Below are positions 16,636 through 53,014 of a stretch of DNA of 64,000 nucleotides, in pieces. Every line of letters begins with the position of its first letter. Position 1 is the stretch's first letter. The translations under genes were made by a program, and so were the position numbers. Origin of the DNA: a virus. Under the pieces are notes generated by a model. That model saw only the letters and a list, made by a program, of their open reading frames with translations, was not told where the DNA came from and ran no database searches. Location of the stretch: IMG/VR virus record IMGVR_UViG_3300017956_006678, positions 1 through 64,000 of that record; one strand, 5' to 3'.

Positions 16636-17375
16636 TGGAAGAAACCAGATTTGTATTTTTAATACCTGCATATAATTGTGAAAAAGAAATTAAACAAACA
16701 TTAATGTCTGTGTTTGCACAATCTTATCAAAATTGGAGAGTAATTCTTATTGATGATGTGTCTACAGATAATACATTACAATTCTCAAAAAATTTGGTCG
16801 AATCGCTTTGTTGTAGAGAAAAATTTATATTTGTTAGAAGAGAAGAAAAATATGGAGAAGTGAGAAATACAGTTGAAGAAATAGAATATATCGATAATGA
16901 TGAAGTTGTTGTTAGGCTAGATGCTGGAGATTGGTTGACAGAAAATGACACTTTGTATTATTTAGATAAGATATATAGTGAACATAATCCTGCTGTTTGT
17001 TGGACTGCACAAAGATGGGCTTATACAAACTATGGAATATCAAAACAAATGAAACTACAACCAAATCAGAGCGTCTATCAGCATCCCTGGGTATCTAGTC
17101 ATTTAAAAACTTTTAGAGCTTCTGCACTTAAAAAGGTGAATCCTAAAAATTTTTATGACGACGATGGAAATTGGATTATGATTGCATGTGATCAGGCAGT
17201 TTTCTTGCCAATGATGCATTTAGCTATAAAAGAAAAATTACCTCTTGTATTTCTTCCAATCGTGTGTTACCATTATAATATTGATCTAGAAAGGCCAGAA
17301 CTTTTTACTGAAGATCGATCGATAAAACAAAAGCAAAGTGCTGAATGGATAAGAGAGAGGGGATATGTTGAGTGA
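16635..17375 (+). CDS. GT2 family glycosyltransferase
   Basis: IPAYNCE, AQSYQNW, IDDVSTD, RLDAGD. Confidence 0.9.
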   Translation: MEETRFVFLIPAYNCEKEIKQTLMSVFAQSYQNWRVILIDDVSTDNTLQFSKNLVESLCCREKFIFVRREEKYGEVRNTVEEIEYIDNDEVVVRLDAGDWLTENDTLYYLDKIYSEHNPAVCWTAQRWAYTNYGISKQMKLQPNQSVYQHPWVSSHLKTFRASALKKVNPKNFYDDDGNWIMIACDQAVFLPMMHLAIKEKLPLVFLPIVCYHYNIDLERPELFTEDRSIKQKQSAEWIRERGYVE

Positions 17376-17733
17376 AACAGGTAAACATATAAGTGAATGT
17401 GAGAAAGTAGATAAACCTTGGGGTTACGAGGTAATTTGGGCAAAAACAAAAGATTATGTTGCAAAAATGATGAGTATTAGCCCAAACCAAAGAATGAGTT
17501 TGCAATATCATAACAAAAAAGAAGAAACACTATATGTAATGTCAGGTGTTTTAATATTGTGGGAAGGTGAAGAGGAAAATGGCTTTAAGCATTTACCTCC
17601 AGGATCTGTGTATCACGTCAATCCTAAACAAATACATAGGTTTGGTGCTGGCTCGAGCCCAGTTATGCTAATTGAAGTTAGTACAAATCACCTTGATGAT
17701 GTTGTTAGAATTAAGGATGATTACGATAGATGA
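17365..17733 (+). CDS. Cupin, mannose-6-phosphate isomerase (type II C-terminal)-like
   Basis: KPWG, SLQYH..KEE, HRF and IEVST...DDVVRI.DDYDR motifs. Confidence 0.8.
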   Translation: MLSETGKHISECEKVDKPWGYEVIWAKTKDYVAKMMSISPNQRMSLQYHNKKEETLYVMSGVLILWEGEEENGFKHLPPGSVYHVNPKQIHRFGAGSSPVMLIEVSTNHLDDVVRIKDDYDR

Positions 17734-21913: not shown

Positions 21914-22541
21914 ATTATTTGATTTTAAAAAACTCGAATCGATTAGAAATAAAAAAATTATTTTTTTAGATTTAGGTGCAAATGTTGGAAAGGTAACAGA
22001 AAAATTATTAGAAATTGATAATATCACAAAAATATACTGTTTTGAACCTGTTATAGAAAATTTTAAAATTTTAGAAAGAAAATTTGGAAAAAATGATAAA
22101 ATAAAATTAGAAAATAAAATAGTTTGGAATCAAAAAGGAAAAGTTAATTTTTCTGTAGGATCTAAAAATTGTCATACAAACTCTAAAATAACTAAAATTA
22201 TTAATGAAAGAAATTATGACAAAAGAAAATATATTAAACAATATGAAATTGATTGTATCGACATATACGATTTTATAGAAAGTTTAAACATAAACAATGA
22301 AGAACAATATTTAGTAATTAAAATGGATATTGAAGGTGCAGAATATGAAGTATTACCTCGTATGATTGAGAAAAATTCTATCCAAAAAGTTGACATTCTT
22401 CTTGTTGAATTTCATAAAGAACCGATACCTGGCAAATCTAAAAAAAGTATAATAGAAAATATTTTTAAAAATAAAGAAAAAATTTTACTATATGAAGAGC
22501 AAACCCCGGGTACATTTAAAAAATGTGATTATAAAAGATGA
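21906..22541 (+). CDS. FkbM family methyltransferase
   Basis: DLGANVG, CFEP, KMDIEGAEYEV, VEFH. Confidence 0.92.
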   Translation: MIELFDFKKLESIRNKKIIFLDLGANVGKVTEKLLEIDNITKIYCFEPVIENFKILERKFGKNDKIKLENKIVWNQKGKVNFSVGSKNCHTNSKITKIINERNYDKRKYIKQYEIDCIDIYDFIESLNINNEEQYLVIKMDIEGAEYEVLPRMIEKNSIQKVDILLVEFHKEPIPGKSKKSIIENIFKNKEKILLYEEQTPGTFKKCDYKR

Positions 22542-23593
22542 ATTTCCTAAAATCCAATAAAGTCCTTAATCATCCAAAAAAATACGCACAATGGTTTGAT
22601 ATTGGCGATACTCTTGGTCCTATAACTGTAAAAATAGATTTAACCAATGTTTGTAATCATGATTGTCCGGGATGTATAGATTATGAATTAATTCACAATG
22701 ATAACAATAGTTTAAATTTTGATTTGTTTGAAGATTTACTAAACTCTCTAAAAAAGTGTGGTGTCAGAGGAATAAACTATACCGGGGGAGGAGAACCCAC
22801 AACACACAAGCAATTTGATAAAATTATAGAATTGACAAATAAAAAAGGTTTTAAAATTGGGTTGATATGCAACGGATCAATGTTTCACAAGTGGAATATG
22901 AGAATATTATTACCTATGTTCACATGGATACGTGTTTCTTTAGATGCTTATAGTGTAGCAACACACAAAAAGACACACGGAAAAACAGCTGATTTTAATA
23001 GAACAGTAAAAAATTTAAAATTACTCTCTACTTTAAAAAGAATGTACAGGTATAACACCACAATAGGCGCAGGTTATATAACAAATCAATACCCGGAGAT
23101 GGATAGAGAACTCTACAAATTTATTGAAATTTGTAAGAACTCAAAAATAGATTATGCCCAACTTAGACCAAGTTTTGGTTTTTTATATGATTATAAATCA
23201 GTCAATCCGGAAGAACTAAGTGAGATATTTAAAAAAGCTAGGTCATATGAAGATGAAAAATTCAGTGTAATTATAGATGAAGGGAAATATAGTAAGATTT
23301 TAGAAGGGAAAGGAACATGCAGAAGCTATAATATATGTCATGCACAATCTTTTAAAGCAACTACTATCACTGCAACAGGTGATGTTTACATATGCTGTTC
23401 TTTAACAGGAAACAAAGAAGGTTGGATAGGTAATATCAAAAAAGAAAACTTTTATAATATCTGGCATGGCGATAAAAGAAAAGAAACATTAGAAAATCTA
23501 AATGTTCATAAGTGTCCACACCTTTGTGTAGGTGATAGTTTGAATGAATTTTTAGATAAAATTAAAAATGCACATCACCCGGAGTTTTTGTAG
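22538..23593 (+). CDS. Radical SAM protein with C-terminal SPASM/twitch domain
   Basis: CNHDCPGC (CxxxCxxC), GGGEP, RVSLD, GDVYICC, IGNI and CPHLC. Confidence 0.92.
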   Translation: MNFLKSNKVLNHPKKYAQWFDIGDTLGPITVKIDLTNVCNHDCPGCIDYELIHNDNNSLNFDLFEDLLNSLKKCGVRGINYTGGGEPTTHKQFDKIIELTNKKGFKIGLICNGSMFHKWNMRILLPMFTWIRVSLDAYSVATHKKTHGKTADFNRTVKNLKLLSTLKRMYRYNTTIGAGYITNQYPEMDRELYKFIEICKNSKIDYAQLRPSFGFLYDYKSVNPEELSEIFKKARSYEDEKFSVIIDEGKYSKILEGKGTCRSYNICHAQSFKATTITATGDVYICCSLTGNKEGWIGNIKKENFYNIWHGDKRKETLENLNVHKCPHLCVGDSLNEFLDKIKNAHHPEFL

Positions 23594-26655: not shown

Positions 26656-27696
26656 ATGAGAGCTTTTTATATTTTTGGAATTACAGACTTTCAAGATATG
26701 ACAACTTCCATAGTCGAATCTTTAAATTACTGTAATGTTTGGGTCGTGATATTTAATTGTTTGGAAAAGAAAAACCAGTTTTATTATTATAAAAAAGAAG
26801 AAATAATCAAATACATCAATTCAATTTGCAAAAATAATAATAATAAAAATAACTTAGAAGTTTCTTACTACTCTAAGTCATGCCAGACAATTTACGAAAA
26901 AGATTTTAAAGATAGAAAACCTAGTATAATATTTATGCAGGGTATTTTTCACAAGTATCCTTTTTGGATTCCAAAAATTTTAGACACGCCTGTTGTTCAT
27001 TATGCTTGGGGTGCAGATGGTTTAAACAATTTAAATAAAAGCAAATATAAGAATAATATCTGCTTAAATGTTTTGAGACACAAAGAAGACTTAAAATTAT
27101 TTAAAGAAAAAACAAAAATACCGGCAATGTATTTTGGTAATTTTGGACTAGATAGTTTGAATTTTATGTACACTGGGTATGAAAAAATTAACAGTTTGAA
27201 TGGTAAAAAGATATTGTTTATGCCTGAAACATGGTTAAAAAAAGAAAATATCAAGTGGGATAAAAGATCTGTACAGAAATGCATTGACCCTATTGTAAAA
27301 ATCGCAAAAGAATTGGGATATTATATAATTCTTAAAAGAAGAGAGAAAGGATATCCTACGGATAAAAATGCGGGATATTCAAATTTACTAAAATATAAGG
27401 ATGAGATAGACATGATAATAAATAAAGATTTGTTTTTTCCTTCGTCATTATATGGAGTCCCGATCTTAGCAAAAAAAACGATATTAGCTGGTCATATGAC
27501 GCAAGGAACGCAAGAATTAATAAACTGTTACAAAAAAATAGGATCTATTGATTTTATGTATGTAAATGAAGACAATTACAATAAGAAAAAAATTGAAAAT
27601 TTTATGAAATTAGAAAGTATAGAAAAAGGTCAAATTAAAATTAAAGATAAAATCACAAAAAAACTCATGAGGTACTTAGATGATAATTTATGTTGA
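26656..27696 (+). CDS. Hypothetical, possible GT-B fold sugar transferase
   Basis: 346 aa; YFGN..LD and KKILF segments suggest a two-Rossmann layout; sits directly upstream of the neu genes. Confidence 0.35.
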   Translation: MRAFYIFGITDFQDMTTSIVESLNYCNVWVVIFNCLEKKNQFYYYKKEEIIKYINSICKNNNNKNNLEVSYYSKSCQTIYEKDFKDRKPSIIFMQGIFHKYPFWIPKILDTPVVHYAWGADGLNNLNKSKYKNNICLNVLRHKEDLKLFKEKTKIPAMYFGNFGLDSLNFMYTGYEKINSLNGKKILFMPETWLKKENIKWDKRSVQKCIDPIVKIAKELGYYIILKRREKGYPTDKNAGYSNLLKYKDEIDMIINKDLFFPSSLYGVPILAKKTILAGHMTQGTQELINCYKKIGSIDFMYVNEDNYNKKKIENFMKLESIEKGQIKIKDKITKKLMRYLDDNLC

Positions 27697-27976
27697 TATA
27701 GATGAAACTATATGCAATTATGAAAATGTTGAGAGAAAGTATAAAAATGCTAAACCGGTTTATGAAAATATTAAAAAAATTAACAATCTGTATAATGCTG
27801 GCAATAATATAATATACTGGACAGCAAGAGGCACAGTAACAAAAATAGATTACTATGAATTAACAAAATCACAACTAAAAAATTGGGGATGCAAGTATCA
27901 TGATCTAATTGTGGGAGAAAAACCACACTATGATCTTCTAATATGTGATAAATCTAAGAGAATTGAGGAAATATGA
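27680..27976 (+). CDS. Small capless HAD-superfamily phosphatase
   Basis: YVDIDETI (DxDxT), WTARG, EKP, ICDK. Confidence 0.8.
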   Translation: MIIYVDIDETICNYENVERKYKNAKPVYENIKKINNLYNAGNNIIYWTARGTVTKIDYYELTKSQLKNWGCKYHDLIVGEKPHYDLLICDKSKRIEEI

Positions 27977-28800
27977 AAAAAACTTATATAATAGCTGAAA
28001 TAGGAATAAATCATAACGGAGAATTAAAGAATGCATTAAGACTAATAGACTTAGCTAAAGTGGCTGGTTGTGATGCAGTTAAATTCCAAAAAAGAAACCC
28101 AGATGTTTGTGTTCCAGATCATCAAAAAATGAAAATTAGGAAAACTCCTTGGGGTGAAATGACTTATATTGATTATAAGCACAGAGTTGAATTTGGGAAA
28201 AAAGAATATGACATAATAGACAAATATTGCAAAGAGAAAGATATAGCATGGTCAGCTTCTCCATGGGATATTGATAGCTTAAATTTTTTAATGAATTATG
28301 ATATACCTTGGATAAAAGTCCCTTCAGCAATGATAACAAATGAAAAACTAATGAGAGAATGTGCAAAATCGGGAAAGAGAATAATATTCTCAACAGGAAT
28401 GTCTACATATGAAGAAATTGATAATGCAGTTAAATTTTTAGAAGGATCTGAGATTGTAATGCTACATTGTAACTCTTCATACCCAGCTGCTTTAGAAGAT
28501 TTAAATTTACTCTGTATAAAAACTCTTAAAGATAGATATAATTGTGAGGTAGGATATAGTGGCCATGAGTTTAGATTAGGAACCACAGTTTCTGCAATAT
28601 ATTTAGGAGCCACATATATTGAAAGGCATATAACTTTAGATAGAACTATGTGGGGATCTGATCACATGGCTTCAGTCGAACCACAAGGTTTAATTAAAAT
28701 GGTTCGCGGTATAAGAGAATTAGAAATAGCTCTTGGTGATGGAATAAAGCGAGTAACAGAAAGTGAATTACCTATAAGGAAAAAATTAAGAGGTACCTAG
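27973..28800 (+). CDS. neuB: NeuB-family nonulosonic acid (or its 9-phosphate) synthase, no C-terminal SAF domain
   Basis: IIAEIGINHNG, DAVKFQKR, STGMS, LHCNSSYP, GYSGHE, IERHITLDR, GSDH. Confidence 0.93.
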   Translation: MKKTYIIAEIGINHNGELKNALRLIDLAKVAGCDAVKFQKRNPDVCVPDHQKMKIRKTPWGEMTYIDYKHRVEFGKKEYDIIDKYCKEKDIAWSASPWDIDSLNFLMNYDIPWIKVPSAMITNEKLMRECAKSGKRIIFSTGMSTYEEIDNAVKFLEGSEIVMLHCNSSYPAALEDLNLLCIKTLKDRYNCEVGYSGHEFRLGTTVSAIYLGATYIERHITLDRTMWGSDHMASVEPQGLIKMVRGIRELEIALGDGIKRVTESELPIRKKLRGT

Positions 28801-28801
28801 G

Positions 28802-29485
28802 ATGAAAAACATTAATGACGTCGCAATTATTGTACAGGCACGACTTAATTCGCAAAGACTACCTAAGAAAATGTTAAAAGAATTTTGTGAAAGTAATTTA
28901 TTTGAAATACTTCTAACAAAGTTAAAAAGTTCAAAAATCATTAATGAAAAAAACGTATATTTGTCAATACACGAAAAAGAATTAATAGATGTTTCAAAGA
29001 AGTTTAATTTTAATGTTTATCTAAGAAGTAAAAAGTCTGCAAACGAAGATAATGATATAAAAGTTATTTATGAATGGTATAATAAACTTCCTTATAAATA
29101 CTGTGTCTTAATAAGTGCTTGTAATCCTTTATTAAAAATTGAAACTATAGACAATTTTATTTCTAACTATCTCAAGTCAGAAAAAGAAGGTGCCTTTGCT
29201 GTCTTTGAAAAAAAGACATATTACTGGAATAAAGAAGGGAAAGCTATTACAGACTGGGGTAGTCAAAAAATAATGAATACAAAAGAAGTTACACCTGTAT
29301 ACGAAGCTGCTCATTGTCTCTATGGCAGTAGATTAAGTTTTCTAGAAAACGAATATTGGATGGATAAAAAAACGCCTCCCGAACCTATGCTTTTTACAAT
29401 GAATGAAATAGAAGCTTTTGATATTGATTACCCGTGGCAATTTGAGATTGCAAAAAAGCTATACGAGGACCAAAAAAATGAATGA
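28802..29485 (+). CDS. neuA: Acylneuraminate cytidylyltransferase (NeuA/KdsB family)
   Basis: IVQARLNSQRLPKKM, CNPLL, EAFDIDYPWQF. Confidence 0.85.
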   Translation: MKNINDVAIIVQARLNSQRLPKKMLKEFCESNLFEILLTKLKSSKIINEKNVYLSIHEKELIDVSKKFNFNVYLRSKKSANEDNDIKVIYEWYNKLPYKYCVLISACNPLLKIETIDNFISNYLKSEKEGAFAVFEKKTYYWNKEGKAITDWGSQKIMNTKEVTPVYEAAHCLYGSRLSFLENEYWMDKKTPPEPMLFTMNEIEAFDIDYPWQFEIAKKLYEDQKNE

Positions 29486-30323
29486 TTTAAATTATCTTAC
29501 CGAAAAAGTATTGGATGCAAAAATACATACTGAACCTTTTGATCATATTATTATTGATAATTTTTTATCCGATCATGACTTAAAAATAATATTAAATGAC
29601 AAACAAATACATTTTGACACGTGTCAAAATACTAAAGATTTAATTAATACTCTACATGAAAAAAATTACAGTATACAGAGTTTTCCCGGATGTAGTACAG
29701 ATATAAAAGATTATCTAGATAAATATAAAAATAAGGTTTGGCCTAATGAAAGAAACGGTACACCTGTAGAAACATTTGGGCTAACATTTCGACTAAAAGA
29801 TTACGACAATCCTAGAATAGAAGAAATTGTTAAATACATGAGCTCAGAAAATTTTCAAAATGCAATTTCTAAAAAGTTTAATTTGAGTAAAAAAACTTAT
29901 GCAATAACTGCTATCCAAAAAAATCTTTCCTATTATGAAATAAGCCCACACCCAGATACAAGAAGAAAAGCAGCAACTTACTTGTTAAATATAAACAAAA
30001 ATGATGAAGCTGAAAAACTAGATGTTCACACACATCTTCTAAAATTTAAAGAAAATTATAATGATATTTATAGAATTTGGAAAGAAGAAGATCATTTTGA
30101 TAGATGTTGGGTACCCTGGGATTGGTGCACCACAGAAAAAATGATTAGAAAAAATAATACTATTGTAATATTTCCGACAACAAATAAAAGTTTACATGCT
30201 GTTAGATTAGATTATGACCATTGTAAATTTCAGAGAACACAAGTCTACGGTAATTTAATGTATGAGAACACAAATAGAGTACCTCAAAGAAATTATAAAA
30301 AGTTAAAGGAAAATATAAAATGA
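29478..30323 (+). CDS. 2OG-Fe(II) oxygenase
   Basis: EPFDHIIIDNFL, ISPHPD (HxD), SLHAV and distal QRT; ATG at 29478 preferred. Confidence 0.75.
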   Translation: MNDLNYLTEKVLDAKIHTEPFDHIIIDNFLSDHDLKIILNDKQIHFDTCQNTKDLINTLHEKNYSIQSFPGCSTDIKDYLDKYKNKVWPNERNGTPVETFGLTFRLKDYDNPRIEEIVKYMSSENFQNAISKKFNLSKKTYAITAIQKNLSYYEISPHPDTRRKAATYLLNINKNDEAEKLDVHTHLLKFKENYNDIYRIWKEEDHFDRCWVPWDWCTTEKMIRKNNTIVIFPTTNKSLHAVRLDYDHCKFQRTQVYGNLMYENTNRVPQRNYKKLKENIK

Positions 30324-31021
30324 GCTATAAGGATCTTAATTTTAAAATGCAAAAAGATTTTAAATTTTTAATCGATTCTGGATTGAAAACTACTTCTACT
30401 TTTTTAGATGTTGGTTGTGGCAGAGGTAGATTAGCACATGCAATTCATTATTTGCAAAATAAAAGTTATTATGGTTTTGATAAAGAGGATTATGTTTTAA
30501 GTTTTAAAAAGAAGATTAAAAATAATAGTAGATTATATCAGAAAAAGTCTCCTCAAATATTTAAATCAGAAATGAATAATTTTTTTGAAAACATCCCGTC
30601 AGATAAGTATTTTGATTTTATCTATGGATATTCGGTTTTTACACATGTAACTTTGGAATCAAAATTAAATTTTTTCATTAATATGAAAAAACATATACAC
30701 AAAGACACTAAAATTTACTTAACTTTTTTAATTTCAAAAAATAAATGTTTCTCTGGAAGTCTTCACAAAGACAGAAAAAATGAATTTAATGGAGTTTGGA
30801 ATACGGAAGAAAAAATTAAAAATTTTTTTAAAAATTTAAATTTTAATGCACAGTGGATTGGTTCTATAGAAAAAAATTGGGAAAATTCACTTAGACCTGA
30901 AAATATCTATAGATATAATGAAGAAGTATATTCACCTTTTGAAAATGGAGAGAAAACTTTTGTTGGAGACTATGGTCATCAAGATTTATTCTATATAACA
31001 CCTATGGATGATAAAATATGA
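30320..31021 (+). CDS. Class I SAM-dependent methyltransferase
   Basis: FLDVGCGRGRL, YYGFD, FDFIYGYSVFTH. Confidence 0.88.
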   Translation: MSYKDLNFKMQKDFKFLIDSGLKTTSTFLDVGCGRGRLAHAIHYLQNKSYYGFDKEDYVLSFKKKIKNNSRLYQKKSPQIFKSEMNNFFENIPSDKYFDFIYGYSVFTHVTLESKLNFFINMKKHIHKDTKIYLTFLISKNKCFSGSLHKDRKNEFNGVWNTEEKIKNFFKNLNFNAQWIGSIEKNWENSLRPENIYRYNEEVYSPFENGEKTFVGDYGHQDLFYITPMDDKI

Positions 31022-32133
31022 AAAAAATACTACATTTAGGAGCTTTTGATCGTAATATTGGTGACAATATAGCATTGATCAATGCACAAAAATTATGGAA
31101 AAAGAATATCAAAGAAGAAATACAATTTAAAAATTTTGATATAGGTAATTTTTGGAAAAATAATAATGATATTAATGCTTCAAAAAAAATATTTTCGAAA
31201 ATTAGCAAAGAATACGATTGTATTCTTGTTGGAGGGGGAGGTCTAGTTGAGTGTCAAGATCACCATGCAACAGGGTGGAAATTACCTTTTAATAAAAAAG
31301 TATTTCAAAGTATAAGTATTCCAACATTTTTCCAAGGTGTAGGTATTAATTGTTTTAGAGGCGGTTCTGAATACACAGATAAAGCTAAGAATTCACTAAG
31401 CGAAACGATTGACAACGCATCAGTTTTTTCTGTACGGAATGATGGTTCAAAGTCAAAGCTTGATAATTGGATTGGAATTAAAAATAAAAAAGTTATAGAA
31501 GTTCCTGATCCGGGTTTAATGCATTATAATGATCATGATATAAAACTAGAAAAATTAGAAAATCTAAATGTTAAAATTTTTGGAATCCAACCCGCGTGGA
31601 ACGGAGGTGGTGATCTTAAACCTGGAATTAACTTAGGAAGATTTATAAATCAAGATAATATCGACTTTATAAAATCATTAACTTCTAATATGAAAGTTTA
31701 TCCACATACAGGTAAAGATTTTAATAGATTAAAAGGAAAAACAATTGTCTCTCTAGAAGAATTTAAGACAAAATATCGATACATTAAAAATACTTATGAT
31801 TTTATTAACAAATACAATGAAGTGGATTGTGTTATTGCAATGAGAGGGCATGGTCAACTTATAACAATAGGAATGAATTTACCGGGAATATATTTAAGTA
31901 CTCAGGATAAAGTAAGAGATTTTTCCTTATTGAATGGTTTTGAAGATTACAATGTTGACATTCTTGAAGATAATTGGCAAGATAAATTAAAAAATTATAT
32001 TTATCTAATGAAAAACGAAGAAGAATACGTTAAAAATTGGTTTAATATTAGAAAAAATAAAATTAAAAAGTGGAAAAATCAAGATAGTGACTTTATTAAT
32101 GAATGCATGAGAGTATTAAAATGGAATGTGTAG
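31018..32133 (+). CDS. Polysaccharide pyruvyl transferase family protein
   Basis: NIGD, VGGGGL, GVGI, SVRNDGS, VPDP, AMRGH. Confidence 0.88.
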   Translation: MKKILHLGAFDRNIGDNIALINAQKLWKKNIKEEIQFKNFDIGNFWKNNNDINASKKIFSKISKEYDCILVGGGGLVECQDHHATGWKLPFNKKVFQSISIPTFFQGVGINCFRGGSEYTDKAKNSLSETIDNASVFSVRNDGSKSKLDNWIGIKNKKVIEVPDPGLMHYNDHDIKLEKLENLNVKIFGIQPAWNGGGDLKPGINLGRFINQDNIDFIKSLTSNMKVYPHTGKDFNRLKGKTIVSLEEFKTKYRYIKNTYDFINKYNEVDCVIAMRGHGQLITIGMNLPGIYLSTQDKVRDFSLLNGFEDYNVDILEDNWQDKLKNYIYLMKNEEEYVKNWFNIRKNKIKKWKNQDSDFINECMRVLKWNV

Positions 32134-32831
32134 TATGTAGCTCAACCACTCATCAGATAAAAAAAGACATATATGAGTGTAAAGATTGTGGTCATATATA
32201 TGTGAACTATATGGGTGACGGATTAGATTATCACAAAAACACACATAGAAGAGACAAAAAAAGTGGAATTAGAGGGAACAATGAGATTGATGGTGAAACA
32301 TTTACGCAAGCTTTTCACGATAGACGAAAAATTATATGTGATAATAGAAAAAAATATATAAAACCTTATATTGAAAACTTGAATAGTATTTTAGACATAG
32401 GCGCTGGAGGGGGAACTTTTTTAAATCACGTATCTAAATCATTTAATACACTGCATAGTACTGAAATAAGCACTATATGTATAAATAATTTAAAAAAACA
32501 AGGTTACTATGTTTATGAAGGAAACTTTTCTGATTTAAAAATTATTAAAAAATATGATGTTGTTACATGTTGGCACGTTTTAGAACATGTCAAGGAGATG
32601 AATTCTTTTATTGATAAGTTAAGTCTCGTAACAGGAAATTATCTTTTTTTAGAAGTACCTACTAAGCGTGGTTTAATTAATGATGTACAAGAAAATTTTG
32701 ATGGCCATTATCATTATTTTTCTAAAAATTCTTTAAAAATAAAACTAGAAAAAAATTTTAAAATAGTTAAAATTGAAGAACCAGGAATACAGAAACCCTC
32801 TATAACCGTAGTAGCTGTACCTAAATCATGA
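32121..32831 (+). CDS. Class I methyltransferase with N-terminal Zn ribbon (Methyltransf_23-like)
   Basis: CVVC...CKDC, ILDIGAGGGTFL, WHVLEH, LEVP. Confidence 0.88.
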   Translation: MECVVCSSTTHQIKKDIYECKDCGHIYVNYMGDGLDYHKNTHRRDKKSGIRGNNEIDGETFTQAFHDRRKIICDNRKKYIKPYIENLNSILDIGAGGGTFLNHVSKSFNTLHSTEISTICINNLKKQGYYVYEGNFSDLKIIKKYDVVTCWHVLEHVKEMNSFIDKLSLVTGNYLFLEVPTKRGLINDVQENFDGHYHYFSKNSLKIKLEKNFKIVKIEEPGIQKPSITVVAVPKS

Positions 32832-33652
32832 TTAATTACGAAAAATATTTTAAAAAATGTCAAGAAATTTTTACCGGTAACAAACCTAGTAGAAACAGTT
32901 CTCTTTTTATTGATAATCTAGGTTGTGAAATATTCAATCCGGAAAAGAAAAATAAAATTTTTAAATTTTATAAAAGTTATAATGATGACGTACATGAAGC
33001 TTTTATTTATTCAGACAATAAAATTAAAAATCGTGTCGATCTTTTTGATACTAATCATAAAAACATAATCAAGGTAGATAATTGGAAAGATTGTCCTGCA
33101 ATTTATAGATTAGGTAATTTTTGTGCACGTGTAGCTGAAGAAAATATATATGGTAGTAATGCAATTGTAGAGTCTATTTTAATTTATAAGAATTTACTTG
33201 GTGGTCCAAAAAGATCTTCGTGGTTATGGCACTATGACGATAACGTACACCAGCAAATTAAAATTATGATTTATTTAAATGACGTCACTGATAAGACAGG
33301 TGCCATGCAAGTATTAAAAAAAGAGGATGGAACTTCTACAAAATTTTTATCGTCAAAAATAAGCCCAATTAAAACTGACAAGTCAAAACAGCTATTTGGT
33401 ACTAGTCGCTTACCTGAACAATTTATTGAACAACAAGAAATAATAACAATTTCAGGAAAAAAAGGAACTTTTATTGTTTTTGATCCTAATACTCCTCATA
33501 GAGCTACTTTAGCTTCTAATAAAGAGACACGTATGTGTGTAGTTTTTAATTTAAGACCTTATCATAAAAATAAAAATAAAAAAATTGATCGATCAACAAA
33601 AACTTGGAGTACACTAGGTAATGTAAAAAAATTTAGCACCAGTATGGATTAA
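32828..33652 (+). CDS. PhyH-like 2OG-Fe(II) dioxygenase
   Basis: LWHYD, KIMIYLNDV...GA, GKKGTFIVFD..TPHRA, ETR. Confidence 0.8.
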   Translation: MINYEKYFKKCQEIFTGNKPSRNSSLFIDNLGCEIFNPEKKNKIFKFYKSYNDDVHEAFIYSDNKIKNRVDLFDTNHKNIIKVDNWKDCPAIYRLGNFCARVAEENIYGSNAIVESILIYKNLLGGPKRSSWLWHYDDNVHQQIKIMIYLNDVTDKTGAMQVLKKEDGTSTKFLSSKISPIKTDKSKQLFGTSRLPEQFIEQQEIITISGKKGTFIVFDPNTPHRATLASNKETRMCVVFNLRPYHKNKNKKIDRSTKTWSTLGNVKKFSTSMD

Positions 33653-33653
33653 G

Positions 33654-34385
33654 ATGTTAATATACAATACACACAACATGACAAAACTAACAAATAATGT
33701 TAATAAAAAAAATATTCTTATTTTAGGATCAGGACCTTCAGCAAGAGAGGTTGATTGGGAAAGTATAGATTTTGATACAGTAATTACAACAAGTTTTTTT
33801 TACTTGAATGAAAAAGTTTTAGAAAAATCAATATGTCACATAAGCTTATCAAAATTAGTAGATCTAGAAAATCCAAAACTTTTAGATTATTTGAGAAAAA
33901 ATAAAAATTGTACTATTTCTTTTGAACCTAAAATAAGTAAACATTTAAAAAATAAAAAAGGTCAAAAAGAAGAAGAAATAATACGATTTGTAAATAGTTC
34001 TCATAAATTTTATACCACAAAAGTTTTTAATAAATTTTATAAAGAATTCTCAGATAGAATATTTTTTTATAGAGCAGAAGGAGGTTTAGAAGGATTGGCA
34101 GGAAGAATATTTTGGCCGACTATTTTAGGTCATCCTAATAAAATATATTTTTGCGGTTTAGATGGTGTTTCAAAAAATACAAATTTAGACCCAAGAAACT
34201 ATTTTCGAAAACACAAGGGAACAACTGACAAACATTACTCATATGAAGAATATAAAAAATCTTTTGAAAATTATGCACAAAGAATGTATAATGCTGCTAA
34301 AGATAAAAAAATTAAAGTAATTAACTTAGGTAAAGGAAAGAATTATAATTTAATGACAAACATTAGTATAATCTATGAGACATAA
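33654..34385 (+). CDS. Cst/GT42-like (or Maf/DUF115-like) nonulosonic acid transferase
   Basis: ILILGSGPSAREVDW..IDFD...FFY and IYFCGLDG resemble Campylobacter CstII IIAGNGPSLKEIDY...NQFY and IYLSGIDF. Confidence 0.6.
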   Translation: MLIYNTHNMTKLTNNVNKKNILILGSGPSAREVDWESIDFDTVITTSFFYLNEKVLEKSICHISLSKLVDLENPKLLDYLRKNKNCTISFEPKISKHLKNKKGQKEEEIIRFVNSSHKFYTTKVFNKFYKEFSDRIFFYRAEGGLEGLAGRIFWPTILGHPNKIYFCGLDGVSKNTNLDPRNYFRKHKGTTDKHYSYEEYKKSFENYAQRMYNAAKDKKIKVINLGKGKNYNLMTNISIIYET

Positions 34386-34403: not shown

Positions 34404-35225
34404 ATGAAAATTAAAAAAATAATTTTAGGAAAAGGTAAAGTATCATCTGTGATTACTGATAAAGAGAGTGTTGTTTTAGATAAAAAACAATGTAATATAT
34501 TAAATATTAATGATTTAAATAACGTCATTAATAAATACAAACCTGAAATAATAATAAACTGTGCTGCAAAAACTAATTTAGAATATTGTCAAGAAAATAA
34601 AATAGATTGCTTTGAAAGTAATACTCGTGGTGTTTTAAATTTAATTGAAATATGCTCTTTAAAAAAAATAAAACTAGTTCATATTAGTAGTGGTTGTTTA
34701 TTTGATGGTAATGAGTTTATCGCAAATGAAAAGACACACGTTTCACCTAAGGTTTGGTATACATGGACAAAAGCATGGGCAGATCAAATAATAGAAAATT
34801 ATGGTTACGAAAATTATCTAATATTGAGACCTAGACAACTCATATCCTGCAAACCACATCCAACAAATATGTTAACAAAGTTTTCTAAAATGAAAAAAAT
34901 ACCTGCAATCAAAGAACCGAATTCAATTACATGTCTAGAAGACTTTAAAGAAATCATTAATCATTTAATAAAAATAGATGCTGTTGGAATTTACAATTGT
35001 GCTAATGAAGGGGTTGTAACGCCTTATGATATTGCAATAGGAGTAAAAGAAAAAATTAATCCATCGCTAGTCGTTGTAAAAGAAACATATGAAAATCTAT
35101 TAAAACAGCTACCTAACAGAAGAGTCAATACAATACTTAGCATTACAAAACTTAAAAATTCTGGGTATACACCTAGATCAGCCAAAGATGCACTTAACTG
35201 GTGTTTAGAAAACTATGGAAAATAA
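34404..35225 (+). CDS. RmlD-like NAD(P)-dependent sugar-nucleotide reductase/epimerase
   Basis: KPEIIINCAAKT, VHISSGC, YTWTK (YxxxK), ILRPR, GIYNCAN. Confidence 0.82.
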   Translation: MKIKKIILGKGKVSSVITDKESVVLDKKQCNILNINDLNNVINKYKPEIIINCAAKTNLEYCQENKIDCFESNTRGVLNLIEICSLKKIKLVHISSGCLFDGNEFIANEKTHVSPKVWYTWTKAWADQIIENYGYENYLILRPRQLISCKPHPTNMLTKFSKMKKIPAIKEPNSITCLEDFKEIINHLIKIDAVGIYNCANEGVVTPYDIAIGVKEKINPSLVVVKETYENLLKQLPNRRVNTILSITKLKNSGYTPRSAKDALNWCLENYGK

Positions 35226-36165
35226 TTGTTATAACATATTACTAACAGGATGTGCAGGCTTTATAGGCAGTCATGCAGCAGAGTGTTTTGTTAAAGATAA
35301 AAGATATTTAGTCGCAGGGGTTGATAAAATGACCTATGCATCGGATCAAAAAAATATTAAAATGCTATCAAATTATGATAATTTTAATTTTTACAAAGGT
35401 GATATATGCGACAAAATGTTAATTGAAAATATTGTAAAAAAATATAATATTAGATGGATAATAAATTTTGCTGCTGAAACACACGTTGATAATTCAATTG
35501 AAGATGCTACTGATTTTTTAAAATCAAACTTTTTAGGTGTACATAATCTTCTTGAAATTTGTAAAAATAAAAAGATAAAACTTTTTCAAATTTCAACAGA
35601 TGAGGTTTATGGAGAAGCTAAAGAATATTCTTACAAAGAAAATAATATGTTAGATCCAAGAAATCCTTATTCAGCTAGCAAAGCAGCTGCAGAACACTTA
35701 ATTAATTCTTATGCAAATACATATCAAGTTGAATATATCATAGCTAGACCGTCTAATAATTACGGCCCTAGGCAACATAAAGAAAAGTTCATACCTAAAA
35801 TACTTATGAATTTAAAGAATCGTAAAAAAGTACCTGTGTATGGATCAGGATTACAAATTAGAGAATGGACATATGTCAAAGATACAGTTAACGCTATAAA
35901 ATTTATATTAGAACATTCTGATTTAAATGAATGTTATAATATTTCATCTAATATTGAAATGAAAAACTTGGAAGTCTTAGATTTAATATGTGAAAAAACA
36001 AATAATGACGCGTCGAAAGTTATTAAATTTGTTAAAGATAGAAAAGGGCATGACAATCGATATTCAATTAATAGCGATAAATTGAATAAGTTAGGTTATA
36101 AAAATTATTTAGACTTTAAGTCAGGTTTAAATAATACAATTAAATATTATTTGGAGAAAAAATGA
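35215..36165 (+). CDS. rmlB: dTDP-glucose 4,6-dehydratase
   Basis: TGCAGFIGS, FAAETHVDNSI, ISTDEVYG, PYSASKA, SNNYGPRQHKEKFIP, DRKGHD.RY. Confidence 0.93.
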   Translation: MENNCYNILLTGCAGFIGSHAAECFVKDKRYLVAGVDKMTYASDQKNIKMLSNYDNFNFYKGDICDKMLIENIVKKYNIRWIINFAAETHVDNSIEDATDFLKSNFLGVHNLLEICKNKKIKLFQISTDEVYGEAKEYSYKENNMLDPRNPYSASKAAAEHLINSYANTYQVEYIIARPSNNYGPRQHKEKFIPKILMNLKNRKKVPVYGSGLQIREWTYVKDTVNAIKFILEHSDLNECYNISSNIEMKNLEVLDLICEKTNNDASKVIKFVKDRKGHDNRYSINSDKLNKLGYKNYLDFKSGLNNTIKYYLEKK

Positions 36166-37004
36166 ATATTGGAATTATAGGGCAAGGATTTGTGGGTTCT
36201 GCAATAAGAGAAGGTTTAAAAAACTTTTATAAAATAAGAACATACGATATCGATTCTTCTAAATGTAATAGCACACATAGAAAAGTTTGCTTAGAATCAG
36301 ATATTATTTTTATGTGTTTGCCTACACCAATGCGTAAAAATGGATCTTGCGATACAAGAATATTAGAATCAGCAATTCAAAAAGTTGACATAACTGTCGA
36401 CCAACGTGATAGCCGACCAATTATAGTTATAAAGTCAACAGTTCCACCAGGTACTACAGAAAGACTAAGTGACATCGTGAACCACTGTGATGTCTGTTTT
36501 AGCCCAGAATTTTTAACAGAAGCAAATTCTTTTGATGACTTTAAAAATCAAAGTAGAATTATTATTGGAGGACCTAGACCTGCAACAGGTAAAGTAAAGC
36601 AAATGTTTAGAAAAGCTTTTCCAACAATACCGATCGTAAAAACAGGTACAAAGACAGCAGAAATGACAAAATACTTCATAAACTGTTTTCTTGCGTCAAA
36701 AGTAACTTTTGCAAATCAAATGTATCAAATTTGTGCGAATAATAATATAGACTACGACAAGGTATGTGAATATGCTTTGTATGATCAAAGAATTGGAAAG
36801 AGTCACTTAGCTGTACCCGGTCCAGATGGAGACTTAGGTTTTGGTGGACATTGTTTCCCTAAAGATCTAGCTGCAATGATTAATTTTGGCGTGAATAATG
36901 AGGGAGACACTGATTTTCTCAAAGCAATTGAAGATTTTAATAATAAATGTAGAAGATTTAAAGACTGGGAGCAAATGAAAGGAAGAGCTGTAAGTGAAGA
37001 TTAG
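36162..37004 (+). CDS. ugd: UDP-glucose/GDP-mannose dehydrogenase family, lacking the C-terminal domain
   Basis: GQGFVG, CLPTP, KSTVPPGTT, SPEFL, AEMTKY, GFGGHCFPKD; only 280 aa. Confidence 0.85.
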   Translation: MNIGIIGQGFVGSAIREGLKNFYKIRTYDIDSSKCNSTHRKVCLESDIIFMCLPTPMRKNGSCDTRILESAIQKVDITVDQRDSRPIIVIKSTVPPGTTERLSDIVNHCDVCFSPEFLTEANSFDDFKNQSRIIIGGPRPATGKVKQMFRKAFPTIPIVKTGTKTAEMTKYFINCFLASKVTFANQMYQICANNNIDYDKVCEYALYDQRIGKSHLAVPGPDGDLGFGGHCFPKDLAAMINFGVNNEGDTDFLKAIEDFNNKCRRFKDWEQMKGRAVSED

Positions 37005-37049: not shown

Positions 37050-37895
37050 ATGAATGAAAACAATGCCCAATTCCCAACAGGTAAACCACATATTTCATTT
37101 TCAGAAATCAAACAATGGAAAGAATGTGGATATCGTCACAAACTAGTCTATATAGATAAAATTGACACTTTTGAAGATTCACCTTATCTTCATTTTGGAA
37201 CAGCAGTTCACGAAGGATGCGAGAGCTTATTAGAGACAAAGAAAATCGACCGTGATAAAATACTAGGGGTTATGAAAGAAAGTTGGCAGAAAGCTGGATT
37301 TGAGAACCCAGCGTGGTATTCTAAGCAACCTTCTTGGTATAAGCATGAACCTGTTGAAACATGGGAAACTTGGGCTAATAATATGTGGGATGAAGTTATA
37401 ACTTTTCTAGATAAAGAATTGACAGGTTGGGAATGTTTTAAAGCAGAAGAAGAATTGTATGAGCCTATTGAGAATCTTAAAAAACCTTTATCCTTTAAAG
37501 GATTTATTGATGGTGTTCTTAAAGTACCTAAAAAGAGAGGTCAGGGTCATGAATACTGGATTATTGACTGGAAAACAGCAGGTCCAGGTGGTTGGAGAAG
37601 AGATAAAAAACAAGATTTAGGTATGACAGCACAATTAATTCTTTATAAACATTTTTGGGCAAAGAAACACAACATTCCACTTAAAGATGTTAGATGTGCT
37701 TTTATATTATTGAAGCGGGGTGCTAAACAAGGAAAAGTATGTGATATTGTTAAAGTTTCTGTAGGACCTAAAACATATATCAAAGGAATTAAACTTATGA
37801 GAAATATGATAAAGACAGTTAGAAAAGGAATGTTTCTTAAAAATAGAAATAGTTGTAAATTTTGTCCTTATGAAAATACAGAACATTGCACATAA
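37050..37895 (+). CDS. PD-(D/E)XK nuclease, Cas4/AddB-like with Fe-S staple
   Basis: SFSEI....EC, FGTAVH, EEEL, GFIDG, IIDWKT, QLILY and C-terminal CKFCPY....HC. Confidence 0.88.
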   Translation: MNENNAQFPTGKPHISFSEIKQWKECGYRHKLVYIDKIDTFEDSPYLHFGTAVHEGCESLLETKKIDRDKILGVMKESWQKAGFENPAWYSKQPSWYKHEPVETWETWANNMWDEVITFLDKELTGWECFKAEEELYEPIENLKKPLSFKGFIDGVLKVPKKRGQGHEYWIIDWKTAGPGGWRRDKKQDLGMTAQLILYKHFWAKKHNIPLKDVRCAFILLKRGAKQGKVCDIVKVSVGPKTYIKGIKLMRNMIKTVRKGMFLKNRNSCKFCPYENTEHCT

Positions 37896-37950
37896 ATGTT
37901 TACTTTAATGGTCTGTAAGATAAAATTATCTCTAATTAAAGAGGTAATTG

Positions 37951-39204
37951 ATGGAAGAAAATAAAAAATTTAAAGTTGTTATTCTTGCAGATCACGCACT
38001 TTCTACTAGCGGCGTAGGTACTCAAACTAGACATTTGGTTGAAGGCCTTTTGAAAAAAGGTTGTTGGTCGTTTAGACAATTTGGGGCTGCTTTAAAACAT
38101 GCAGACTATAGAACTGTTGTTGTTAATGAAGATTTTGTCATTAAACCTATTGATGGATTTGGTAATCCTGAACTTATAAGAGTTACATTAGCAACTGAAA
38201 AACCTGATCTTATTTTTATTTTTACTGATCCTAGATTTTTTGTGTGGCTATTTGAGATGGAAGATGAAATACATCAGGTTTGTCCGATTGTTTGGTGGCA
38301 TGTTTGGGATAATTATCCGTACCCTAAGTTTAATACGCCTTTTTATGAATCAACAGATCTAATTAATTGTCATTCACATATGACTTACACTATGATTAAA
38401 GATAAGTTCCCAGCTAAAACAAATTTTATACCTCATGCTCTGCCAGAAAATATTTTTCACCCAATTACAAAAAATGAAAAAATTAATTATAAAAATGAAA
38501 TACTAGGAAACGAAAAGGCAGACTATTTCACAACAATTTGGGTAAATAGAAATGCTAAAAGAAAAAGACCTAGTGACGTTTTAGCATCTTGGAAGATGTT
38601 TTTAGAAAAACTTAAAAAAGAAAAAGGACACCAAAAAGCAACCTTAATTATGCACACTGACCCATACGATCAAGAAGGTCCTAATTTAATAGCAGTATCT
38701 GAAAACTTAGGAATACAAGATACAGTTATATTCTCTAGAGAGAGGATAGATTTTGCAAAGATGAATATACTGTACAATATTTCTGATTGCTGCATTAGTA
38801 TGTCCTATGCTGAAGGTTTTGGACTGTCAACTCTAGAATCAATGATGACAGGGACACCTATTATTGCACCAAAAACTGGAGGATTAACTAGACAAGTTGT
38901 TGATCATCGAGATGAAAGTCACAATGGTGTTGCTTTAGATATATCAATGAAAACCCTGGTAGGAAGTCAATCTGTACCTTATATTTATGAAGACTATGCG
39001 TCATGTGAAGATGCATCAGAAGCACTTTATAAAATGTATAGTTTGTCTGCAAAAGAAAAAGAAAAATTATCAGAAAAAGTATTAGAATATGCACACACCC
39101 AATTTGGAATGCAAAATACTATTGATAAGTGGCATGATTCAATGATTGATATAATCAAAAATTGGAAAAACAATTATCAAAGATTAGATGTACAAGAAAT
39201 ATAA
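37951..39204 (+). CDS. GT4-like glycosyltransferase
   Basis: SGVG, NRNAKRK, AEGFGLSTLESMMTGTP. Confidence 0.9.
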   Translation: MEENKKFKVVILADHALSTSGVGTQTRHLVEGLLKKGCWSFRQFGAALKHADYRTVVVNEDFVIKPIDGFGNPELIRVTLATEKPDLIFIFTDPRFFVWLFEMEDEIHQVCPIVWWHVWDNYPYPKFNTPFYESTDLINCHSHMTYTMIKDKFPAKTNFIPHALPENIFHPITKNEKINYKNEILGNEKADYFTTIWVNRNAKRKRPSDVLASWKMFLEKLKKEKGHQKATLIMHTDPYDQEGPNLIAVSENLGIQDTVIFSRERIDFAKMNILYNISDCCISMSYAEGFGLSTLESMMTGTPIIAPKTGGLTRQVVDHRDESHNGVALDISMKTLVGSQSVPYIYEDYASCEDASEALYKMYSLSAKEKEKLSEKVLEYAHTQFGMQNTIDKWHDSMIDIIKNWKNNYQRLDVQEI

Positions 39205-39217
39205 TAAGAGGACAATA

Positions 39218-48361: not shown

Positions 48362-48372
48362 GGATAAAAGTA

Positions 48373-51909: not shown

Positions 51910-51916
51910 GTAAAAA

Positions 51917-53011: not shown

Positions 53012-53014
53012 AAT

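Follow-up and report, generated by a model that had tools for sequence, protein, structure and literature searches.

An uncultured marine jumbo myophage carries a wholly soluble glycan island of about 27 kb, and our analyses suggest that a module within it makes, activates and attaches Kdn, a sialic acid free of nitrogen, from the mannose-6-phosphate (Man-6-P) of its host by way of a 9-phosphate, a reading to which we assign a probability of roughly 60%. The window analysed was a stretch of 64,000 nucleotides (positions 1 to 64,000 of the IMG/VR record IMGVR_UViG_3300017956_006678); the full record spans 74.6 kb, with a genome completeness of about 21% according to CheckV, leaving 79% of the genome unseen. 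The genes named in the first-pass annotation were all present, intact, tightly packed and on the same strand (+, as are all the genes located below). The analyses showed what the genes encode, how their products fold, where the NeuB falls in its tree and how the genes are linked; from these results we infer the substrates, product, step order and acceptor of the following route. The cupin 17365 (17365..17733) would turn host Fru-6-P into Man-6-P, which the short NeuB 27973 (27973..28800) would join with PEP to give Kdn-9-phosphate. The small HAD 27680 (27680..27976) would take off the phosphate, the NeuA-type protein 28802 (28802..29485) would produce CMP-Kdn and the CstII/Maf-fold protein 33654 (33654..34385) would move Kdn onto a cytoplasmic acceptor. 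The five genes between NeuA and 33654 (two oxygenase-like, two for methyltransferases and one for a pyruvyl transferase) would decorate the sugar or its glycan. The HAD-NeuB-NeuA row reported by the first-pass annotation was borne out, since the three genes are contiguous at 27680-29485 and each matched its family.

NeuB 27973 (275 aa) was the only NeuB in the record. It matched PF03102 at 7.6e-77 over the complete profile (positions 1-241 of 241) and stopped 0-2 residues past the TIM barrel, whereas all the anchors ran 57-95 aa longer; the SAF/antifreeze-like (AFP) domain, present in every Neu5Ac, Leg and Pse anchor, was absent from it. Its best PDB match was 6ncs, a short NeuB of 290 aa. In the phylogenetic tree, short and long NeuBs were separated by a bipartition with a support of 100/98, and NeuB 27973 fell on the short side together with the short NeuBs of actinobacteria, Methylomagnum, Hymenobacter and Azospirillum thermophilum. 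The anchors sampled in the tree, which were Neu5Ac synthases from E. coli K1 and Moritella, one LegI defined by its context and two PseI proteins, were all on the long side. The comparison with Neu, Leg and Pse synthases that had been suggested as a check thus set the phage protein apart from all three. Its scores against the NeuB_NnaB (TIGR03569) and PseI (TIGR03586) models, 266.7 and 196.1 bits, were below the equivalog cut-offs of 399.65 and 340.25, and with the missing SAF domain and the position across the split, an assignment as a canonical Neu5Ac, Leg or Pse synthase was rejected. A KFQ[KR]R motif was found in 172 out of 173 short NeuB sequences and in 1 out of 42 long ones. By eye, the coding sequence of the Prymnesium Kdn-9-P synthetase (published with PMC6200933) was also short, had no SAF domain, read KFQKRNP and ended in a C-terminal LPI...KL tail similar to that of NeuB 27973. 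The P. parvum enzyme (CAMPEP_0191217894) uses Man-6-P as its sole substrate, and neither ManNAc-6-P nor free mannose is used (PMC6200933). We propose that NeuB 27973 is a Kdn-9-phosphate synthase condensing Man-6-P and PEP.

The nearest cellular relatives of NeuB 27973 were the Streptomyces orthologues of SCO4881, with identities of 56-59%, and this short type was the only NeuB in four out of five Streptomyces genomes. There, a glycosyltransferase gene on the minus strand, a 513-aa ORF, a NeuA-HAD fusion and the short NeuB are found in this order, a layout that corresponds to SCO4878-SCO4881 (PMC3479208). The cluster SCO4873-SCO4882 has been assigned to a Kdn-containing teichulosonic acid wall polymer (PMC13011467, PMC11481543) and includes a NanE-like gene (PMC3479208). 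As in the phage, the short NeuB (SCO4881) is paired with NeuA (SCO4880) and a HAD; unlike in the phage, NeuA carries its HAD as a fused Cof-type domain, and large GT2 and NeuE-like proteins make up the glycosyltransferases. No similarity of the phage NeuA and HAD to their Streptomyces counterparts was detectable by tblastn. The same logic, in which a NeuB-family synthase acts on Man-6-P and PEP, a phosphatase and then a CMP synthetase take over and NeuC plays no part, operates in B. thetaiotaomicron, through the synthase BT1714, the phosphatase BT1713 and an adjacent CMP-Kdn synthetase, and in P. parvum (PMC6200933). The phage system differs from both in that the genes lie in a phage, and come with a putative dedicated transferase and candidate tailoring enzymes. 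The first-pass annotation had suggested a Kdn-type acid made via a 9-phosphate. Clade placement, SCO4881 orthology, the recurrent HAD pairing described below, the architecture and motif in common with the Prymnesium synthetase and a cupin beside the module in sister phages all favoured that suggestion.

The cupin, a type-II phosphomannose isomerase-like protein of 122 aa, matched PF01050 at 5.4e-11 (43.1 bits, where 23.6 is the cut-off, and positions 8-116 of a 116-position profile), the C-terminal part of TIGR01479 at 2.9e-10 and PDB 7zvm, a 113-aa Man-6-P isomerase, at 1.6e-5, in agreement with its earlier description as Man-6-P isomerase-like. Homologues were present in 11 related viral loci, and in 8 of these no more than 300 bp separated them from a HAD, NeuA or NeuB ORF. 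A role in supplying Man-6-P from Fru-6-P is proposed for it on these matches. The 227-aa cytidylyltransferase 28802 belongs to the NeuA/KdsB family (PF02348, CTP_transf_3, at 1.1e-16, with 61.8 bits where the cut-off is 22.6), but is so divergent that the sugar it activates cannot be read from its sequence: the matches to the PseF and KdsB models were weak and sub-threshold, and the PDB gave a weak match only (6oew, 0.003). Tblastn placed a homologue with the module in 63 out of 80 sister loci and phmmer in 58 out of 82, and we propose that 28802 acts as a CMP-Kdn synthetase.

The 243-aa protein 33654, which closes the module, had been described as a CstII-like transferase. Its AlphaFold2 (AF2) model (pLDDT 95) gave CstII (1ro7) as the best Foldseek match (E 1e-5). 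Structure comparison with VIA yielded Z scores of 11.6 for CstII (183 residues, 20% identity), 11.5 for CstI, 10.8 for MptE, 9.9 for a Pasteurella sialyltransferase and 9.2 for both ST8SiaIII and Maf, with unrelated folds beginning at 4.2, so that the structure search put forward to check the description returned a Cst-like fold. The fold is thus common to 33654, the GT42 enzymes CstI and CstII of Campylobacter jejuni and the Maf flagellin nonulosonate transferases, as are a GxGPS nucleotide loop and a GxD motif at matching positions. Like these enzymes, 33654 is soluble and genetically tied to NeuB and NeuA; unlike Maf, it has no Maf-type flanking domains. GSGPS, GxDG and H187 were conserved in 31 homologues, and H187 would be the catalytic histidine. 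Neither the CST-I nor the MptE-like Pfam model matched 33654 at E values up to 1, and PF01973 (MptE-like, DUF115) was weakly matched by 7 of the 31 relatives (best E 0.0079). The family occurred in 65 out of 82 viral loci, and 69 of its 85 ORFs had a HAD, NeuA or NeuB ORF at a distance of 300 bp or less. Based on the modelled fold, we propose 33654 as the Kdn transferase.

Five candidate tailoring genes lie between NeuA and 33654. The first (29478..30323, about 281 aa, with a likely start at the ATG at 29478 rather than the TTG at 29418) probably encodes a 2OG-Fe(II) oxygenase-like enzyme: it had no Pfam match and a weak NCBIfam 2OG oxygenase match (0.008), an HPD motif was seen in its translation, and a protein-atlas feature search scored 0.98 for viral clusters and 0.94 for clusters of 2OG-FeII_Oxy_3. 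It is followed by a SAM-dependent methyltransferase (30320..31021; Methyltransf_31, _12 and _23 at 1e-7 to 4e-6), a polysaccharide pyruvyl transferase (31018..32133; PF04230 at 1.7e-19 over the full profile), a second SAM-dependent methyltransferase with an N-terminal Cys-rich segment (32103..32831; Methyltransf_23 at 7e-16) and a PhyH-type 2OG-Fe(II) dioxygenase (32828..33652; PF05721 at 1.1e-6). Pyruvyl transferase homologues were found beside the module in 11-12 sister loci and PhyH homologues in 25-26. In A. thermophilum, a PhyH gene comes after the short NeuB, HAD and O-methyltransferase genes.

Since none of the 31 island proteins contained transmembrane segments, a cytoplasmic target is the likeliest. 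The acceptor is perhaps a protein of the phage particle, which is the weakest step of the route. The pathway could instead remodel the surface of the infected host cell, perhaps to keep other phages out. Viral LPS and capsule genes are usually read in this way (10.1101/655167), and host transferases could be fed CMP-Kdn; yet the 31 island proteins included no flippase, polymerase, initiating phosphoglycosyl transferase or other membrane protein, baseplate and tail genes adjoin the island, and the tripeptide [ST][GA]S was strongly enriched in three large tail-region proteins. We regard a host-surface target as possible but rather unlikely. That alternative differs from our reading in the target alone, and the Kdn chemistry could be the same under both.

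The ORF upstream of the HAD (26656..27696, 346 aa) bears on whether the sugar is Kdn. Its end overlaps the HAD start (26656..27696 against 27680..27976) and its AF2 model (pLDDT 88) has a GT-B/UDP-GlcNAc 2-epimerase-like fold: the top 32 PDB matches were all UDP-GlcNAc 2-epimerases, NeuC included (Z 19.3-16.5), ahead of the best glycosyltransferase at Z 16.2. The 9-phosphate route might thus start from another sugar phosphate and PEP, such as ManNAc-6-P to give Neu5Ac-9-P, or from a novel precursor, and 26656 may supply it. Substrates may indeed differ within the short clade because its Methylomagnum and A. thermophilum members occur in other contexts, the former with a transketolase and an aminotransferase gene and the latter with a divergent Leg operon; the NanE-like gene of the Streptomyces cluster points the same way. 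However, 26656 had no match in Pfam or NCBIfam, and hhalign against three NeuC sequences gave a probability of 0.4%. The only local alignment paired QGIFH with the GDRxE and HYAWGAD with the HIxGGE of the epimerases, whose catalytic acids are therefore not kept. As a NeuC or UDP-GlcNAc 2-epimerase (PF02350), 26656 was rejected, the likeness being one of fold only, and it is probably not a working NeuC. None of 80 sister loci had a homologue of it next to NeuB; three other viral loci did contain one, accompanied by a homologue of the gene at 25865. Moreover, the record yielded neither a kinase nor an aminotransferase or acetyltransferase, it is Kdn and not Neu5Ac that occurs in the Streptomyces polymer, and the motif-sharing Prymnesium enzyme rejects ManNAc-6-P. 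A 9-phosphate route to a sugar other than Kdn is accordingly unlikely in our judgement. The absence of NeuC and of Pse/Leg aminotransferases noted in the first-pass annotation held to the extent that PF02350 and PF01041 (DegT) matched nowhere in the 74.6-kb record, and must be qualified by the NeuC-like fold, without catalytic motifs, of 26656.

The remaining step of the Kdn-9-phosphate route depends on the HAD. The phage phosphatase, a capless EcbF/BcbF-like HAD of 98 aa (PDB 9iqw family), is unlike BT1713, which we take to be a KdsC-type C0 HAD. Across 19 homologues, D6, D8, T10, T48 and K81 were invariant and D85 nearly so; motif I reads DIDET (DxDxT), and motif IV, with D90, is CD in HAD 27680 but DD in many of its relatives. 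The 9iqw entry, a 'capsule biosynthesis protein', was matched at 1.5e-11 with the single sequence and 3.9e-21 with a profile, and TIGR01689 (capsule biosynthesis phosphatase) matched 16 of the 19 family members. We propose, from its motifs and family, that HAD 27680 is a Kdn-9-phosphate phosphatase. It could instead serve another sugar-phosphate step, for instance with 25865 and 26656, if Kdn or another acid were made directly from an unphosphorylated sugar. The HAD stop overlaps the NeuB start in an ATGA junction, which carries little weight because all genes in this phage overlap. The HAD was present within 6 kb in only 32 out of 82 viral loci, and only 19 of 33 HAD ORFs had a NeuA or NeuB ORF at most 300 bp away. 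The link with NeuB is not exclusive either, since in one viral locus (L174) a 26656 homologue is followed by a distant member of the HAD family, and NeuB is absent from the 5 kb around it. Against this, each of the five cellular lineages examined (Streptomyces, Nonomuraea, Ilumatobacteraceae, Methylomagnum and A. thermophilum) had a HAD next to its short NeuB or fused to it, these HADs belonging to several different, unrelated subfamilies, and the phage HAD family recurred immediately behind the short NeuB of cyanophage AG-345-L05 and close to that of LR756508. Such varied HADs beside short NeuBs in five lineages and two distant phages are hard to reconcile with a non-phosphorylated product, and the Prymnesium enzyme makes no use of free mannose. 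We consider the unphosphorylated route improbable. That NeuB 27973 completes a Pse, Leg or Neu5Ac pathway whose earlier genes lie in the unsequenced 79% is very improbable, given its place across the 100/98 split from all such anchors, the SAF domain that it lacks and all of them have, and the non-glycan genes that flank the island on either side, even though the record is a fragment and additional NeuB paralogues of the long type, which many sister phages have, group on that side of the tree.

The proposed Kdn module was considered unusual for a phage in the first-pass annotation. This applied to cultured phages, in which NeuB was found in 3 out of 50,697 records, but not to uncultured ones: at least 226 IMG/VR contigs encoded a NeuB 67-80% identical to NeuB 27973, and hundreds of related ocean phage contigs have the core of the module in common. 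Viral neuABC genes have been mentioned in passing in a lake virome, where the neuA, neuB and neuC of the uncultured Lake Biwa phage LBVG_26 were read as auxiliary genes (10.1101/655167). Clusters of that kind are of the Neu5Ac/Pse type because NeuC and amino-sugar genes are present, whereas the module described here has no amino-sugar steps, is of the short-NeuB/HAD type and carries its own transferase.

All five genes that the first-pass annotation had assigned to a nonulosonic acid pathway are present at their positions in the window. The capless HAD phosphatase of 98 aa (27680-27976) is followed by NeuB (27973-28800; PF03102, 7.6e-77), which is the only NeuB of the record and ends directly after the barrel, and by a NeuA-type CTP_transf_3 cytidylyltransferase (28802-29485; 1.1e-16), for which PDB and NCBIfam gave no informative match. 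The HAD was identified by its motifs and by profile matches. Among 19 homologues, DxDxT, T48 and K81 were invariant and D85 nearly so, while D90 lay within motif IV; a 134-aa 'capsule biosynthesis protein' in the PDB (9iqw) was matched by the family profile at 3.9e-21, and NCBIfam TIGR01689 (capsule biosynthesis phosphatase) matched 16 of the 19 members. The phosphomannose-isomerase cupin (17365-17733), located 10 kb upstream of the module, matched PF01050 over its full length (5.4e-11) and was similar to the solved structure 7zvm, a Man-6-P isomerase of 113 aa.

We then placed the window NeuB in a tree with sequences from 80 IMG/VR loci, 80 GTDB loci, annotated plasmid and phage records and E. 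coli K1 UTI89. This set consisted of two architectures, short sequences that end at most 25 residues past the barrel and long ones in which 53-105 more residues constitute a SAF domain; some long phage copies were fused to 220-450 extra residues. In the maximum-likelihood tree, the short/long split received an ultrafast bootstrap of 100 and an SH-aLRT of 98 and appeared in 200 out of 200 bootstrap trees. The long side included the NeuB of E. coli K1, that of Moritella (in a NeuA-NeuB-NeuC context), a Sulfitobacter NeuB from a LegB-LegC-NeuC operon and two PseI proteins from pseBCFGI and pseCGHI operons. The window NeuB fell on the short side, together with phage copies 67-80% identical to it, cellular sequences from Streptomyces, Nonomuraea, Ilumatobacteraceae, Methylomagnum, Hymenobacter and Azospirillum thermophilum, and viral ones from the Kyanoviridae cyanophage AG-345-L05 and the metagenomic phage LR756508. 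The phylogeny proposed in the first-pass annotation as a check on the pathway therefore separates this NeuB from Pse and Leg synthases. Many of the sister phages (80 IMG/VR loci with a related NeuB) carried two or three paralogues, that is, one or two long copies beside the short one. These long copies formed two clades near PseI/Neu5Ac-type enzymes, and their fused forms reached 487-632 aa, the 220-450 extra residues being C-terminal. The clade overall thus probably makes several nonulosonates, while this record holds the short NeuB only.

In all cellular lineages examined, a HAD phosphatase gene was fused to the short NeuB or directly adjoined it. In Streptomyces the HAD was fused to NeuA, and in Nonomuraea a single open frame held NeuA, HAD and NeuB; in N. 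gerenzanensis (locus L167, 6639-8831) this frame comprised 730 codons and may represent a triple fusion spanning three of the four pathway steps. The HAD lay immediately upstream of the short NeuB in Ilumatobacteraceae and immediately downstream in Methylomagnum (a HAD-IIIA) and in A. thermophilum, where an O-methyltransferase and a PhyH dioxygenase followed, much like in the phage. Since the HADs linked to short NeuB belong to different subfamilies, this pairing speaks for a phosphatase having been recruited more than once, and it supports a route through a 9-phosphate. In viruses, the small HAD family occurred within 6 kb of a short NeuB in 32 out of 82 loci; in cyanophage AG-345-L05 it directly follows NeuB, and in LR756508 it lies 3 kb away.

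The nearest cellular relatives of the window NeuB, at 56-59% identity, came from many Streptomyces species (GTDB loci). A complete Streptomyces genome presented a divergent GT2 gene, a 513-aa ORF, a NeuA-HAD fusion and then the short NeuB, a layout that agrees with the S. coelicolor genes SCO4878 (glycosyltransferase), SCO4879 (NeuE-like), SCO4880 (NeuA) and SCO4881 (NeuB) as described in PMC3479208. PMC13011467, citing Ostash et al. 2014, assigns the SCO4873-SCO4882 cluster to teichulosonic acid, a wall polymer of Kdn and galactose in which methylated Kdn is known from Streptomyces (PMC11481543). The NeuB-family gene was unique in four of the five Streptomyces genomes searched. No tblastn match to the Streptomyces loci was obtained with other window proteins, so that NeuB alone is demonstrably related to them. 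A second link to Kdn came from the Kdn-9-P synthetase of Prymnesium parvum, which converted only Man-6-P among seven sugars tried (PMC6200933). Its coding sequence, translated by eye from the supplement of that paper, corresponds to about 310 residues without a SAF domain, and by eye, at motif level, it showed KFQKRNP past the second strand and an LPI...KL tail resembling that of the window NeuB. In our collected set, KFQ[KR]R was present in 172 out of 173 short NeuB sequences and in 1 out of 42 long ones.

The first-pass annotation had recognised neither a NeuC epimerase nor a Pse/Leg aminotransferase. As for the latter, PF01041 (DegT aminotransferases) had no match across the record. PF02350 also lacked a match in the whole record, but the statement on NeuC was weakened by the epimerase-like predicted fold of the ORF immediately upstream of the HAD (26656-27696), which overlaps the HAD start and had no family match. 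For its product, a protein-atlas lookup pointed to either a GT-B or an epimerase fold. In a model built with 13 homologues (pLDDT 88), the 32 best PDB entries were all UDP-GlcNAc 2-epimerases, NeuC entries ranking first (Z 19.3) and the best glycosyltransferase reaching Z 16.2. Given this fold and the gene overlap, we retain as a rival reading that the 26656 protein may feed NeuB. Profile-profile comparison with three NeuC sequences returned a probability of 0.4%, and the sole local alignment placed QGIFH opposite the epimerase GDRxE and HYAWGAD opposite HIxGGE, indicating that the catalytic acids are missing. The gene was found beside NeuB in none of the 80 sister loci. In three other viral loci its homologue was accompanied by a homologue of the 25865 gene, and in one of the three a distant HAD relative followed it, with NeuB not nearby. 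On motifs and gene linkage, a divergent NeuC was rejected as the likelier reading, although the fold match stands, and the 26656 protein is read as a separate, predicted enzyme of the island.

The protein encoded at 33654-34385 had no Pfam match, no sequence-level PDB match and no homologue in phage isolates. Its model, based on 31 homologues, reached a pLDDT of 95 and supported the CstII-like transferase proposed earlier, with CstII and CstI as best matches (Foldseek E 1e-5; Z 11.6 and 11.5). MptE, a Pasteurella sialyltransferase, ST8SiaIII, Maf and ST6Gal came next (Z 10.8 to 8.4), and the first other fold appeared only at Z 4.2. At least one member of this family was detected with phmmer in 65 out of 82 viral loci, and 69 of its 85 ORFs were located no more than 300 bp from an ORF for HAD, NeuA or NeuB. 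NeuA homologues were found with tblastn in 63 of the 80 IMG/VR loci, and cupin homologues in 11 loci, in eight of which they directly adjoined the module. GT29 is the animal-type sialyltransferase family. LR756508, of 484 kb, carries a 210-aa GT29 gene (LR756508.1, locus L164, 7247-7879; PF00777, 1.6e-26) immediately upstream of its short NeuB, whereas the window phage has the 33654-type transferase; a GIY-YIG/HTH gene is inserted immediately downstream.

From the gene identities, fold, clade placement and linkage established here, we infer substrates and product for a route in which the cupin would convert Fru-6-P to Man-6-P, the short NeuB would condense Man-6-P with PEP to Kdn-9-P, the HAD would release Kdn, the NeuA-type enzyme would use CTP to form CMP-Kdn and the 33654 transferase would pass Kdn to an acceptor. 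The putative tailoring genes between NeuA and the transferase (2OG-oxygenase-like, two methyltransferases, a pyruvyl transferase and a PhyH dioxygenase) would decorate the sugar or the glycan.

The module belongs to an island of 31 closely spaced genes (13357-40390), chiefly glycosyltransferases, methyltransferases and nucleotide-sugar enzymes. None of the 31 proteins contained a hydrophobic stretch of transmembrane-helix length and the island abuts tail genes, which makes a cytoplasmic acceptor likelier than a lipid-linked surface polymer. Three tail-region proteins (46835, 48373 and 53015, within 46835-56329) were enriched in [ST][GA]S, with 11, 11 and 12 occurrences against 1.4, 2.6 and 3.5 expected, counts attained in none of 500 shuffles for each; no enrichment was seen in the other window proteins tested. 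This motif is a possible glycosylation sequon, and with its enrichment virion glycosylation becomes an idea that can be put to the test, but no more than that. A bolder proposal, to which we give roughly three chances in ten, is that the phage sialylates its own particle, the soluble 33654 protein placing methylated, pyruvylated or hydroxylated Kdn in the cytoplasm on Ser/Thr of tail or fibre proteins, possibly at [ST][GA]S. If so, a large and abundant clade of ocean phages would bear an acidic, variable sugar coat. A role of the island in DNA modification was judged unlikely, given about a dozen glycosyltransferase-type genes, the adjoining tail genes and a PD-(D/E)XK nuclease at 37050 as the sole linked DNA-metabolism gene.

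Kdn and other sialic-acid-like sugars cap cell surfaces in animals, some bacteria and microalgae. That such a set is unusual in a phage was true of deposited phage records, in which three out of 50,697 contained a NeuB homologue (one being a bacterial contig) and none a 33654 homologue, but not of uncultured viruses, since near relatives of the window NeuB occurred in at least 226 IMG/VR contigs, besides thousands of metagenomic proteins. A lake virome study mentions neuA/B/C in viral genomes in passing (10.1101/655167); our literature search found no phage for which a Kdn-type route through short NeuB and HAD, or a transferase of the CstII/Maf fold, is described. Chemically this is the known Kdn-9-P route, here in a new version that differs in the family of its phosphatase, in that of its transferase and in residing in a phage. 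The phage route would draw on central host metabolites only (Fru-6-P, PEP and CTP), with its own transferase. If it operates, nonulosonate coating would be a common viral trait at sea, given hundreds of uncultured marine phage contigs, and a candidate explanation for variation of the phage or host surface. It would also provide a source of predicted enzyme families (short NeuB, mini-HAD and a 243-aa sialyltransferase-fold protein) and connect Streptomyces SCO4880/4881, which are as yet uncharacterised, with the Kdn-9-phosphate route.

The window covers 64 kb of a 74.6-kb record of 21% completeness (CheckV), from which the whole genome would probably measure about 350 kb. The window's GC content is about 29%, nearly all genes lie on the plus strand and no tRNA genes were found within it. 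The closest isolate relatives of its T4-type baseplate wedge protein (44994), only 31-34% identical, were those of Flavobacterium phage immuto, the metagenomic LR756508 and Microcystis phage Mel-JY01. Within 34404-37004, an RmlD-like protein, beginning at profile position 26 of 287, and a 280-aa NDP-sugar dehydrogenase, spanning positions 71-297 of 413, appeared truncated; sister locus L024 carried two dehydrogenase-like ORFs of this type in tandem. The PD-(D/E)XK nuclease and two following GT4 glycosyltransferases (37050-40390) were kept in most sister loci, upstream of NeuB there and downstream of the island in the window. As this block is fixed and its side relative to NeuB differs, the island is a variable cassette adjoining it. 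A radical SAM/SPASM enzyme in the middle of the island (22538-23593), flanked by an FkbM methyltransferase and a GT4-like gene, was 75% identical to a copy in viral contig L174.
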